The notes beneath the pieces were generated by a model that saw only the letters and a program-made list of their open reading frames with translations, did not search any database and was not told the origin of the DNA. The translations under genes and the position numbers were made by a program. Below, in pieces: positions 33,986 to 38,069 of a DNA stretch of 64,000 bases; positions within the stretch are counted from its first letter, which is position 1, and each line of letters starts with the position of its first letter. This DNA comes from an uncultured delta proteobacterium (GTDB taxonomy: Bacteria; Desulfobacterota; Binatia; Binatales; Binataceae): the NCBI GenBank assembly GCA_963724765.1, contig CAVRVY010000003.1, forward strand, positions 1,248,001-1,312,000. The letters run 5' to 3'.

Positions 33986-33993
33986 AGGGGTAA

Positions 33994-34064
33994 CCTCCAC
34001 GGTTGTTAGGGCGCTACCTTAACCCGAGCGGCACGACGGCGGCAATCGAAATGCGCCAGCCTCC
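33994..34064. repeat. 71-bp perfect direct repeat, copy 1
   Basis: cctccacggttgttagggcgctaccttaacccgagcggcacgacggcggcaatcgaaatgcgccagcctcc identical at 37999-38069. Confidence 0.95.
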
Positions 34065-34647
34065 CGCGTCGCCCGAAGCTGGACCAAAGTCCGATTGTCT
34101 CGGTTACGTCTCACAGGCATCATTTGCGGGATCTGATTGCGCGAAGGCGCCGAGGTTGTGCCTTAATAGCCGATTCCGAAGGATTCCGCAGTGATAGAGA
34201 GCCGCAGAGCATCAGGGCTGCGTGTCGGCGCGCGAGTTGTCGCGCTCGTGTTCGTGTTCGTCGCGCTTGGCTTGTCGCGAGCAACGGCGCAGCCAGCACC
34301 CGCACCGCTCAGCGCGGATGAAGCTACGGCGATCGGGACCGACGCATATATCTTCGGCTATCCGCTCGTCACGATGGAGTACTCGCGGCGCGTTCTGACC
34401 AACGTCGCAGAGCCTGCCGCGACCAAAGCGCCGATGGGCGATCTCGCGAGGGTGCGGTCTTACCCGAACGCCTCTTTCCGCGATGTCACAGCTCCTAATG
34501 CCGGGAATAATATACTTGACTAATCCCGTGTGCTAGGCTGAACGGGACGTGACAGGCTGGCCGACAAACCGCGTTCGTGTCCACTCATTTACGTATTACA
34601 TGGTGATCTAAGTGATCTTTAATGATCTTTTAGAATGTCTTAAGTAG

Positions 34648-34676
34648 TTGACTCAAGCGTGGCAAGCCGTTACGCT
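34648..34676 (+). promoter_or_regulatory. Sigma70-type promoter for the long-leader transcript of the small Cys-rich gene
   Basis: TTGACT-17 nt-TACGCT preceded by an AT-rich tract with three TGATCT repeats. Confidence 0.6.
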
Positions 34677-34764
34677 AAGAGCGGTGGCAGGGTGGGCAAG
34701 GTCTTAATCGGGCGCGCAGGGAGGATGAGTGGGGCCGCATTTCACAATCCAATAAGAGAATAAG

Positions 34765-34832
34765 AAAAAAGCCCCTGTCATTTTGCCGATGGCAGGGGCT
34801 TGGGTGCCTGACTGGCAGGCCGGATCCGATTC
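34765..34832 (-). ncRNA. Predicted ~68-nt antisense sRNA in IS cargo
   Basis: Own promoter TTGCAG-17-TAAGCT upstream; small hairpin GCCUG-CCAGU-CAGGC then AAGCCCCUGCCAU/AUGACAGGGGCUU stem ending in U6; no credible ORF. Confidence 0.6.
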
Positions 34833-34839
34833 AGAATTT

Positions 34840-34868
34840 AGCTTACCACCATAAAGGCAACCCTGCAA
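34840..34868 (-). promoter_or_regulatory. Sigma70-type promoter of predicted sRNA
   Basis: Minus strand TTGCAG (34863-34868), 17-nt spacer, extended -10 TGG-TAAGCT (34840-34845). Confidence 0.6.
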
Positions 34869-34933
34869 CGGGCTCGTGTGGTCAGGCCGCGAGCCAACGG
34901 GAAAGGTGTGCCTTATGGCCTACGATACATCAT

Positions 34934-34962
34934 AAAAAGACCGACGCCCCCGAAAGGGGGCG
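34934..34962 (-). terminator. Hairpin/terminator closing the minus-strand cargo transcript
   Basis: cgccccc-gaaa-gggggcg stem (34945-34962) with a T5 run 6 nt downstream on the minus strand. Confidence 0.5.
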
Positions 34963-35018
34963 GATTGCTCACAGGCAACTCGCAAAATTTAACAGCATCA
35001 AATAGGAAGCAAAAACAA

Positions 35019-35192
35019 ATGCCTAAACCAGGCGAAGTTAATCAAGTGTCCGGAATTTACCGTTCTGACTGCTGCGGAGTGGAGCGGGCTGTTCCGGAGT
35101 ATCATAAATTTCCACCCTGCGATAAACGCGGATTTTCCTGTAAGGGTGCGAATGCGACGTGGACTCTTGTCCGTCGCACTCAGACGAAATGA
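35019..35192 (+). CDS. Small Cys-rich YjzC-like / zinc-ribbon protein (57 aa), IS passenger
   Basis: MPKPGEVNQVSGIYRSDCCGVERAVPEYHKFPPCDKRGFSCKGANATWTLV fits the KPG...SGxY...FPP...WxLV pattern; AGGA RBS and A-rich spacer. Confidence 0.75.
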   Translation: MPKPGEVNQVSGIYRSDCCGVERAVPEYHKFPPCDKRGFSCKGANATWTLVRRTQTK

Positions 35193-35553
35193 ATCGATGA
35201 ATAGAGTCTGAGCTATAACCGAACAGAAGCCCCCGTATCCAGTGAGCGTGTGTGCCATGGATTGCGGGGGCTTCACCAAAAAGATGAAGCAGGCCAGCAA
35301 TGGCCCACTCGTACCGGTAAAACCCGAATCGCCACCAATCGCCATCGCGCAGAACGAATCCATAGACTTCCGATTCTCCCGCGATATCGATGCAACGATT
35401 CAAATCGTCTGAAAGACTTTCAATTTTTTCGGCGCTTAAAACGCGCCCGCCAATTTCGATGATAGGTTTGCCACCGCGCGCAACCCATTCAATTGCGGTA
35501 ACGGCGTGGCCAGTCTCATACTCTGTCAGGATCAGAAGGTCATGTAACGCCAC
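35038..35553 (-). CDS. Hypothetical protein (171 aa), IS passenger
   Basis: Start overlaps the upstream 57-aa ORF; globular-looking core ending HWIRGLLFGYSSDSIHRF; tail is antisense to the YjzC-like gene. Confidence 0.65.
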   Translation of the reverse strand: MALHDLLILTEYETGHAVTAIEWVARGGKPIIEIGGRVLSAEKIESLSDDLNRCIDIAGESEVYGFVLRDGDWWRFGFYRYEWAIAGLLHLFGEAPAIHGTHAHWIRGLLFGYSSDSIHRFISSECDGQESTSHSHPYRKIRVYRRVEIYDTPEQPAPLRSSQNGKFRTLD

Positions 35554-35713
35554 GTTTCTTTCTCTTGGATTTCGTCAGCTGTTCCGCAAGTTCATGTTTG
35601 GGTACAGCAACCAACGCGCGCATGGCTTTCGCGAACCGCTGAAATGCTGATTCTGGTGGTTGTTCGTCAGGCCGTGCTTCGTGCGTGACGTGCGTGACGG
35701 CTGAATCCTTCAT
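35540..35713 (-). CDS. Small basic hypothetical protein (57 aa) downstream of transposase
   Basis: MKDSAVTHVTHEARPDEQPPESAFQRFAKAMRALVAVPKHELAEQLTKSKRKKRGVT; TGA-TAGACT extended -10 six nt before ATG; below ORF-track cutoff. Confidence 0.6.
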   Translation of the reverse strand: MKDSAVTHVTHEARPDEQPPESAFQRFAKAMRALVAVPKHELAEQLTKSKRKKRGVT

Positions 35714-35752
35714 AACTTCAGTCTATCACGTTTTGGTCGCGTCAGTCTGCCT

Positions 35753-36721
35753 CTACTCTGCCGGAGTCGATGAGGGCTCAAACGCTGGCGCGCCGCCGCC
35801 GATAAGCTCTTTGTACGTCAAGCGCCGTCCTGTCACGTTGCCGAGCGCCTGAACAAAGCGCGCCGCATCCGTGCCCTTGCGCTCGTTGAATCGGAACGCC
35901 TGCTCATCGAGATAGCGGAACAGATGGAACGGCTCGACGCTGATGTAGGTTCCTTTGAGGCCGCGTTTTAGGCAGGACCAAAAGTTTTCGATTCGATTCG
36001 TGTGAACGTTGCCCTTAACGTAGGCTTCCGTGTGATTGATAACCTGATGAACATACTCACGGTCTAGGCCGTTGTACGCGACCCATTCATCGGTGAACAC
36101 TTCCGAACCGGCTTCAACGTGCTGGCGGATTTCATCCTGTAGCGTCCGGCGCTGAGTATTCGGAACATGCTTGATGCGGACTTTGCCGCTGTTGCGGTCG
36201 AGGATGCCCATCACAATCGCTTTACCGGCCCCGCCCGTGCCCCCGATTTTTCTTGCGCGATCTGCCTTGTGCATGAATCGGGCGAGGCCACCGATAAAAG
36301 TTTCGTCGGCTTCCACCTGACCGCTGACTTTCTCAAATGTTCCGGTCTGCATTGCCTTGCGAATCCGATGAAGCATAAACCATGCGGTCTTTTGTGTCAC
36401 GTCGAGATCGCGTGCAACTTCATAGCTGCTAATCCCGTTCTTGCAATTGACCAACAGCCAGACAGCCGGAAGCCACTTGTCGAGACCGATGGGCGAATCC
36501 TCAAAGATGGTTCCAACCTTAACGGAGAACTGACGCTTCGGATGCTTTGAACTGCATTGCCAGCGGCTTTGATTGGCAAGGAAGCCAACCTTATCACTTC
36601 CGCATGTCGGACACTTGATGCCGTCCGGCCAGCGGATAGTCGCCATAAACTCGCGGCAGTTATCGGCGTTCTTAAAGAACCGAACCGCGTCGATCAACGT
36701 TCTCGGTATTCCTGCGTCCAT
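35753..36721 (-). CDS. IS1595-family (ISXO2-like) DDE transposase
   Basis: RWPDGIKCPTCG Zn-ribbon, FSVKVGTIFEDS, VTQKTAWFMLHRIR HTH, VEADETFIGG, FTDEW, INH, HTNRIENFWS, YLDEQAFRFN. Confidence 0.96.
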   Translation of the reverse strand: MDAGIPRTLIDAVRFFKNADNCREFMATIRWPDGIKCPTCGSDKVGFLANQSRWQCSSKHPKRQFSVKVGTIFEDSPIGLDKWLPAVWLLVNCKNGISSYEVARDLDVTQKTAWFMLHRIRKAMQTGTFEKVSGQVEADETFIGGLARFMHKADRARKIGGTGGAGKAIVMGILDRNSGKVRIKHVPNTQRRTLQDEIRQHVEAGSEVFTDEWVAYNGLDREYVHQVINHTEAYVKGNVHTNRIENFWSCLKRGLKGTYISVEPFHLFRYLDEQAFRFNERKGTDAARFVQALGNVTGRRLTYKELIGGGAPAFEPSSTPAE

Positions 36722-36727
36722 GTCAGA

Positions 36728-36756
36728 ATCATAGCGAACGAGCGAGGATTAGTCAA
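36728..36756 (-). promoter_or_regulatory. Transposase promoter (leaderless), -35 inside TIR
   Basis: TTGACT-17 nt-TATGAT, 6 nt, then ATG; no RBS. Confidence 0.75.
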
Positions 36757-37998
36757 GTATATTATTCCCCTAATGCCGACACTCTCTACACCTTCGCGTG
36801 GCTCGATCTCAGCAAGGAGCCATACGTGCTCAGCATTCCGGATGCGCATGGACGTTATTACCTGTTTCCGATGCTCGACGCGTGGACGACCGTGTTCCAG
36901 GTCCCCGGCAAGCGCACGACAGGCACTGGTCCGCAGACCTATGCGATCACCGGTCCCGGATGGTCGGGCACGCTTCCCGCTGGCGTGACCGAGTACAAGT
37001 CGCCGACCAACCTCGTCTGGATTCTTGGACGCATCTACTGCACCGGCACGCCGAAAGATTATAAGGCAGTGCATGCGTTGCAGGACAAAATCACGCTCGT
37101 CCCGCTCAGCTCGTACGGCAAGCCGTACACGCCGGCGGCTGGAACGGTCGATCCGAACATCGACGTGAAAACTGCGGTGCGAGCCCAGGTGAATGCGCTC
37201 GACATCGCGGCGTACTTCAACCTGATGGCGCAGTTGATGAAAGATAACCCGCCCACCGCGGAGGATGCGCCGATGATGGCGCGGATGGCGAAGATCGGAA
37301 TCGTGCCGGGGAAGGCGTTCGATATGACAAAGCTCTCACCCGATGCGCAACAGGCGCTAAAGGCTGTTCCCAAGGCCGCCGTCGCCAGGGTTATGGGCTA
37401 CTTCAAGGACGCTGGTAAGCGCGAAAATAGCTGGACGTTCCTTACCAAGACAGGAATCTATGGAACCGACTATCTCAATCGCGCTTTTGTCACCGCGATT
37501 GGTCTTGGCGCGAACCGTCCGCAGGACGCGGTCTATCCAACCTCTGAGATGGATGCCGGGGGAAAACCCTACTCGGGCGCCAACAAGTACGTCACGCGTT
37601 TCGACAAGGGAAAGTTGCCTCCCGCGGAGGGCTTCTGGTCGATGACGATGTACGACGCGAATTATTTCTTCGTGAATAATCCGCTCAATCGCTATACCAT
37701 CAGCGCGCGCAACAAGCTGAAGCAAAATGCCGACGGGTCTATCGACCTGTACATGCAGCACGAAAATCCCGGCAAGGACAAGGAATCCAACTGGCTGCCC
37801 GCTCCCGCAGGCAAGTTCGTTCTGATGCTGCGGATGTACTGGCCCAAGGAGACTCCGCCCTCGCTGCTGGACGGGACGTGGACGATACCGGGGGTGAAGC
37901 AGGCGTCGTAGTCAGCTCGGCGGGTTTCGAACAAGCTGGGAGGAAGGTCTCAACGGCCGCCGGCGCTACGCGGCGGCACCGCCGCTCACCAGGAGTAG

Positions 37999-38069
37999 CC
38001 TCCACGGTTGTTAGGGCGCTACCTTAACCCGAGCGGCACGACGGCGGCAATCGAAATGCGCCAGCCTCC
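37999..38069. repeat. 71-bp perfect direct repeat, copy 2
   Basis: Identical to 33994-34064. Confidence 0.95.

Follow-up and report, generated by a model that had tools for sequence, protein, structure and literature searches.

Does the minus strand of the window (the whole 64,000-nucleotide stretch of DNA that was analysed, to which all positions refer) carry a small RNA gene of its own between 34868 and 34765, or does a longer transcript simply end there? The original prediction had opted for the former: a self-contained cis-antisense sRNA that would serve a small gene downstream as antitoxin or attenuator. Judged from the letters of the DNA, the candidate comprises a real terminator and a plausible sRNA, whose promoter is doubtful. 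The reading that we favor, with a probability of roughly 0.45, is that 34800-34765 is a strong terminator that sets the 3' end of cargo transcripts made from the transposase strand, and that no independent promoter serves it.

The candidate does lie inside an insertion sequence (IS), as had been proposed. This element (34503-36769; 2267 bp) ends in perfect 24-nt inverted repeats (34503-34526 and 36746-36769), is flanked by an 8-bp target duplication, CTAATGCC (34495-34502 and 36770-36777), and interrupts a DUF1254/DUF1214 gene. The product of its transposase gene (35753-36721, minus strand) matches DDE_Tnp_IS1595 (1.2e-40), the N-terminal zinc ribbon Zn_ribbon_IS1595 (4.4e-10), and NF033547 (1.2e-57); together with the inverted repeats, the 8-bp duplication and the presence of more than one copy, these features place the element in the IS1595 family. 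The genome holds two copies. The second, on another contig, is the same as the window copy except for the deletion of one C at the inner edge of the left repeat; one C of this CCC run (34525-34527) is also absent from contigs of the sequencing runs X2 and X8. A 79-nt direct repeat, 97% identical and present in the genome only at 33986-34064 and 37991-38069, stands on either side of the DUF1254/DUF1214 gene that the IS interrupts.

IS1595-family elements with passenger genes have previously been described by ISfinder. In the portions of the literature returned by a search aimed at IS1595 and passenger genes, no sRNA in an IS1595 element was met. For comparison, the 80 closest of 587 confirmed transposase loci were kept (55-70% identity), most of which come from soil and peat MAGs. 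Both ends of the related element were found at 62 of these 80 loci, and the elements so defined are 1.2-4.0 kb long and carry unrelated cargo. The motif GTGACAGG, at 34549-34556 in the window, is found 40-53 nt inside the transposase-distal inverted repeat both here and in 10 of the 62 relatives (L015, L020, L038, L041, L057, L069, L078, L079, L087 and L091). It is expected by chance about 0.003 times per 150 nt, and the proximal repeat never has it on its inner side; several relatives show it 8-10 nt after an inward TTGAC-17-TAnnnT motif.

On the minus strand, the terminator (34800-34765) consists of a 12-bp stem, in which 9 + 3 pairs surround one C.A mismatch, a 7-nt loop, and a U6 run (34770-34765) that directly adjoins the stem (34800-34770). 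Ahead of it lies a 5-bp hairpin, GCCUG/CAGGC with the loop CCAGU (34820-34806). For 34832-34765, RNAfold predicts these two hairpins and no others (-24.9 kcal/mol). This part of the original prediction, both hairpins and the U6 run on the minus strand, stands. A hairpin of -14 kcal/mol or lower directly followed by T6 appeared on neither strand in any of 300 dinucleotide shuffles of 34527-35018, the 492-nt non-coding stretch of the IS; with a looser definition (-10 kcal/mol and 5 T of 6), such a structure appeared in 17 of 300. At a stringency similar to the former, the whole window contains 18 terminator sites in 128 kb, mostly loose hairpins in G+C-rich coding DNA. By its anatomy, a G+C-rich stem-loop with a U run directly after it, and by its absence from the shuffles, the structure at 34800-34765 is an intrinsic terminator, beyond what chance would be expected to supply.

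What might this terminator stop? It shares its strand with three co-oriented ORFs of the IS and lies downstream of them: the transposase gene, a 57-aa ORF just past it (35713-35540), and a 171-aa cargo gene (35553-35038). It lies 237 nt past the stop codon of the 171-aa gene, beyond one other hairpin, and 262 nt before the left end of the IS. The intervening hairpin, CGCCCCC-UUUC-GGGGGCG (34962-34935, minus strand), passes a loose terminator scan but fails a stricter one that demands an adjacent U run, and is probably a leaky terminator. Since its U run is set 6 nt off the stem, leakage is expected here, making 34800-34765 the first canonical stop. Under the favored reading, the cargo transcript would span the transposase gene, the 57-aa ORF and the 171-aa gene, leak past the hairpin at 34962-34935, and read through to 34765. 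The 5-bp hairpin would then be a mere part of a 3' UTR of about 270 nt, and the promoter-like motif upstream of it would be either a chance match or a very weak promoter. Such a terminator would keep IS-internal transcription from leaving the element, and would also limit how far minus-strand RNA can be antisense to inward plus-strand transcripts. Two steps of this reading are ones that we infer: that transcription passes the first hairpin, and that no start of its own precedes the terminator. Some features argue against it. A second terminator stands 135 nt after the first hairpin, with a TG-extended motif 33 nt ahead of its first hairpin, and such a layout of motif and terminator is the classic signature from which sRNA genes are predicted. 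In addition, 492 nt of non-coding DNA is much for an IS, which is a hint of function.

The motif in question, TTGCAG-17-(TGg)TAAGCT, occupies 34868-34840 of the minus strand, with the -35 sequence TTGCAG at 34868-34863 and the TGg plus -10 sequence TAAGCT at 34848-34840; transcription from it is predicted to start at about 34832-34833. The original prediction had described its letters and its 17-nt spacer correctly. As a promoter, however, it is weak, since it matches the consensus at 6 of 12 positions (3/6 and 3/6) and adds only the extended -10 TG. A scan for consensus promoters with a threshold of 9/12 missed it, and also missed an 8/12 plus-strand site, TTGACT-17-TACGCT, at 34648-34676. 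The pattern TTG...TGnTAnnnT occurs once in 128 kb, that is, on both strands of the window, which speaks against a chance match, although the criteria were chosen post hoc. With a looser -35 sequence there are 10 TG-extended sites in the same 128 kb, and the IS (2.3 kb) by itself has three distinct ones on its minus strand, a count that favors the cargo terminator. Another TG-extended promoter-like site, TTTGCT-16-(TGt)TAAATT (35013-34988, minus strand), faces the hairpin at 34962-34935, and could give rise to a roughly 47-nt RNA opposite the start region of the small gene.

The main alternative is an independent 68-nt sRNA gene, in which transcription would start near 34832 from the TG-extended promoter and stop at the U6 run. 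We regard this as a possibility to be taken seriously, but would not wager on it. In its favor, the extended -10 motif is placed at the right distance from a real terminator. The 6/12 match of the promoter, below the scan threshold, counts against it. The whole-RNA fold of 34832-34765 is unexceptional (z = -1.71; 11 of 200 shuffles were at least as stable), which favors the cargo terminator. The Rfam check that the original prediction had named came back empty, with no match inside 34503-36769 at E values up to 10, and a search of the genome, which is 97% complete, found no Hfq gene. Finally, against the four translation start regions in the IS, the 68-nt RNA paired no better than shuffles did (lowest z, -0.05).

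Homologs, whose covariation the original prediction had proposed as a further check, are confined to the two IS copies, which are identical over 34533-35018. For this region, no homolog was found in the rest of the genome beyond these copies, in 164 other genomes of the family, in the 80 transposase loci, or in 43 loci that carry the 171-aa cargo gene. Among 400 genomes of the phylum there were only two matches (31-34 nt, 88%); these cover just the terminator hairpin and were taken as chance. There is, then, neither covariation nor a homolog from which to argue selection on an RNA, a result that weighs against the sRNA gene and in favor of the cargo terminator.

A stretch with no relative anywhere searched could also be a relic or a hitch-hiker: the 492 nt would have come with the cargo or with an earlier neighbor, and its hairpins would have no current role in the IS. 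This explanation is also suggested by the cargo regions of the 62 two-ended relatives, all of which differ, and by the positions of their terminators. Of the 60 of these elements that are at least 1900 bp long and were scanned for this purpose, 42 carry one or more transposase-strand terminators within their cargo, at no fixed place. Still, a perfect U6 run after an intact 12-bp stem is unlikely to last by chance. Furthermore, both genomic copies are identical here, although identity carries little weight in a young IS, and the DNA contigs from runs X2, X8 and X9 that span 34520-35289, wholly or in part, show 0-1 deviating letters. We consider a relic unlikely.

The "downstream small gene" of the original prediction is real. 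It lies at 35019-35192 on the plus strand and encodes a basic, four-cysteine protein of 57 aa; it is convergent with the 171-aa gene, with which it shares about 155 nt. Databases contain 18 relatives of the 171-aa protein (42-99% identity), and its gene was found at 43 metagenome loci. In 38 of these 43, tblastn detected a relative of the small gene; five loci gave no match. An ATG or GTG is present at the aligned start in 32 of the 38, and the N-terminal part is different in the other six. In the alignment of the small proteins, 15 columns do not vary, among them two cysteines and FPPC; at two other columns, cysteine is kept in at least 90% of the rows. Inside the overlap, the entropy at the codon positions of the small gene is 0.47, 0.44 and 1.11 bits (23 sequences of exactly 57 codons, 18 of them unique, with other lengths dropped). 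Thus, purifying selection acts on the small gene but not on the tail of the 171-aa frame. In 20 of 27 sequences the 171-aa frame has no stop as far as nt 22 of the small gene, but another antisense frame, which holds no known gene, is open in 18 of the same 27, so openness alone is little proof. In the structural model of the 171-aa protein, residues 1-125 are confident; residues 126-135, 155-162 and 168-171 have pLDDT values below 50, and residues 139-151 form a predicted beta-hairpin, whose 10-residue block has a mean of about 80.

None of the three cargo proteins (the 171-aa protein, the small protein, and the product of the 57-aa ORF) had a match in Pfam, NCBIfam or PADLOC, and the ESM Atlas returned unnamed clusters only. 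Foldseek found no clear fold match for the 171-aa model (the best hit, 2guk, E = 0.024, is a protein of unknown function) and nothing below E = 1 for the small protein. A profile search with the small protein yielded 163 relatives, all "hypothetical", three of which bear a PF07295 label and one a PF14168 label. ORFs like that at 35540-35713 adjoin the transposase gene, on either strand, in 12 of the 80 transposase loci at E < 0.1 and in six at E <= 0.001. The small protein itself is hydrophilic and basic (GRAVY -0.76; pI 9.3), with a highest 15-residue hydropathy of 0.23. It is cysteine-rich, has no hydrophobic segment, and does not resemble a membrane-type, type I toxin, which would typically be small, hydrophobic and membrane-active; its hydrophilic character also counts against the sRNA gene. 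No support was found for the label "antitoxin or attenuator".

Regulation of the small gene by the 68-nt RNA makes a further demand, since it additionally needs a long plus-strand leader. The RNA would pair with this leader in cis, 187-254 nt ahead of the ATG; an independent sRNA might instead have another target. The RNA, which had been called "fully complementary" to the leader, would be so only if the plus-strand RNA starts at about 34683. The TTGACT-17-TACGCT site at 34648-34676 could in principle give the long leader. It stands behind three direct repeats, (G/A)TGATCT, at 34603-34628; these are spaced 9-10 nt apart, just upstream of the plus-strand site, and resemble an operator or a set of iterons. 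Transcription of the interrupted host gene, likewise on the plus strand, would enter the IS. Moreover, the small gene is both real and under purifying selection, and in IstR-1/tisB the pairing takes place far upstream in the leader. Close to the small gene, the window offers no good promoter (the best is 7/12). In six related loci (L096, L102, L110, L113, L120 and L124), a TATAAT-like box, read from the sequences, is present 23-37 nt before the ATG of the small gene, suggesting short leaders there, in which the complementary region would be missing. On balance, we think it improbable that the 68-nt RNA controls the small gene.

The single RNA run among the 20 matched sequencing runs, X20 (share 0.10), provided one 156-nt contig, on 35010-35165, with one other letter and a depth of 32. 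Contigs carry no strand or ends, and this one shows only that 35010-35165 is present in the RNA library. Over 34765-34868 the run has no cover, which counts neither for nor against the candidate.

The related loci bear on both of the leading explanations. Downstream of the 171-aa homolog in L095 (3078-3228) and L101 (3073-3226), on the plus strand of these loci, lies a strongly predicted small unit with a TTGACA-16-CATAAT or TTGACA-16-TATAAT promoter (11/12 and 12/12, respectively), three hairpins, and a terminator, for a length of about 115 nt. It is on the strand of the 171-aa gene, starts 34-39 nt from the ATG of the small gene, and recurs in looser form in L105 and L107. Its 33 pairs include two compensatory changes, four one-sided changes and no broken pair, a comparison of two sequences only. 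Searches by blastn and covariance model confine the unit to these loci, and the covariance model scores E >= 1 on the IS of the window; the unit is therefore analogous, not homologous, to the candidate. With its near-consensus promoter and its terminator, it nevertheless provides a precedent for a dedicated small RNA beside the gene pair, which strengthens the sRNA gene and weakens the cargo terminator. With IS1595 transposase promoters set aside, promoter-like sites of at least 9/12 on that strand were present in eight loci (L095, L096, L101, L105, L112, L114, L128 and L129) among 29 upstream regions, and only L095, L101 and L105 have a site of at least 10/12 that is 34-39 nt from the ATG; the window has none at 9/12, which tells against an sRNA gene. 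Terminators on the strand of the 171-aa gene are found 40-190 nt beyond the start of the small gene in L094, L101, L106, L116 and L128. Transcripts of the 171-aa gene would thus commonly cross this region, as the cargo-terminator reading supposes.

The convergent pair itself (35019-35553 in the window) recurs in loci L093-L129 and L133. In this genome it is present solely in the two IS copies, and it was found in none of 164 other genomes of the family. In a scan of its neighbors (49 ORFs, hand-picked from 91 of at least 170 aa in 32 loci), IS1595 transposases (L110, L113 and L121) and IS1-type transposases (L122 and L125) were identified, as were MmeI-type, D12 and C5 methyltransferases, GmrSD, and Fic. 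In soil and peat metagenomes, the gene pair accompanies IS1595 and IS1 transposases and has restriction-modification and other defence genes as neighbors. A bolder proposal is that the 68-nt RNA belongs, with the 57-aa and 171-aa genes, to a mobile module of three parts that is carried on IS of at least two families (IS1595 and IS1) and in which antisense RNA holds the small protein in check, making up a new addiction or defence-linked cassette. In such a module the antisense RNA would arise from the 3' end of the 171-aa gene and, in some versions, from a dedicated sRNA. We rate this proposal as very unlikely.

Should the RNA prove real, the IS would carry a regulatory RNA whose target is a cargo gene and not the transposase, an unusual arrangement among insertion sequences. 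A well-formed terminator behind a doubtful promoter is, on the other hand, the commonest kind of sRNA prediction. The conserved, uncharacterised convergent pair, composed of the 57-aa four-cysteine gene and the 171-aa gene, is the more useful outcome, and presents a better experimental target than the RNA alone.

How does the candidate compare with systems that are known? Two insertion sequences are reported to encode small RNAs that are cis-antisense to the 5' UTR of the transposase mRNA and repress its translation: art200 of IS200 (PMC4513863) and RNA-OUT of IS10 (PMC5006887). The candidate would share with them a short, structured RNA, here a predicted one, inside an IS and opposite another transcript of that IS. 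Unlike art200 and RNA-OUT, it does not overlap the 5' UTR or the start of the transposase gene. Instead, it lies at the far end of the IS, 1.9 kb from the transposase start, on the strand of the transposase gene and opposite, at most, the leader of a cargo gene, and it has no sequence or Rfam match to either.

The long leader required for control of the small gene recalls the type I toxin-antitoxin system IstR-1/tisB, in which IstR-1 binds the tisB leader at a far upstream place. Both would involve a short RNA, in the candidate a predicted one, that has a promoter and a terminator of its own and is complementary to a leader well upstream of a small ORF. The differences lie in the protein, which here is hydrophilic, basic and four-cysteine, and in the RNA, which is not conserved with the gene. 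Another parallel may be the class of sRNAs that arise from the 3' UTRs of mRNAs by way of an internal promoter. As in that class, the candidate would have its terminator in common with the read-through transcript of the upstream gene, and the units of L095 and L101 look like members of it; the internal promoter of the candidate, by contrast, is weak.

Finally, the features at 34800-34765 are those of Rho-independent terminators: a G+C-rich stem of 12 bp, a 7-nt loop, an adjacent U6 run, and a place downstream of an operon on its coding strand. It differs in its position, 237 nt past the stop codon and beyond another hairpin. In having a first hairpin that is probably leaky and then a strong second one, the candidate may be likened to tandem arrangements in which a leaky terminator is backed by a strong one.
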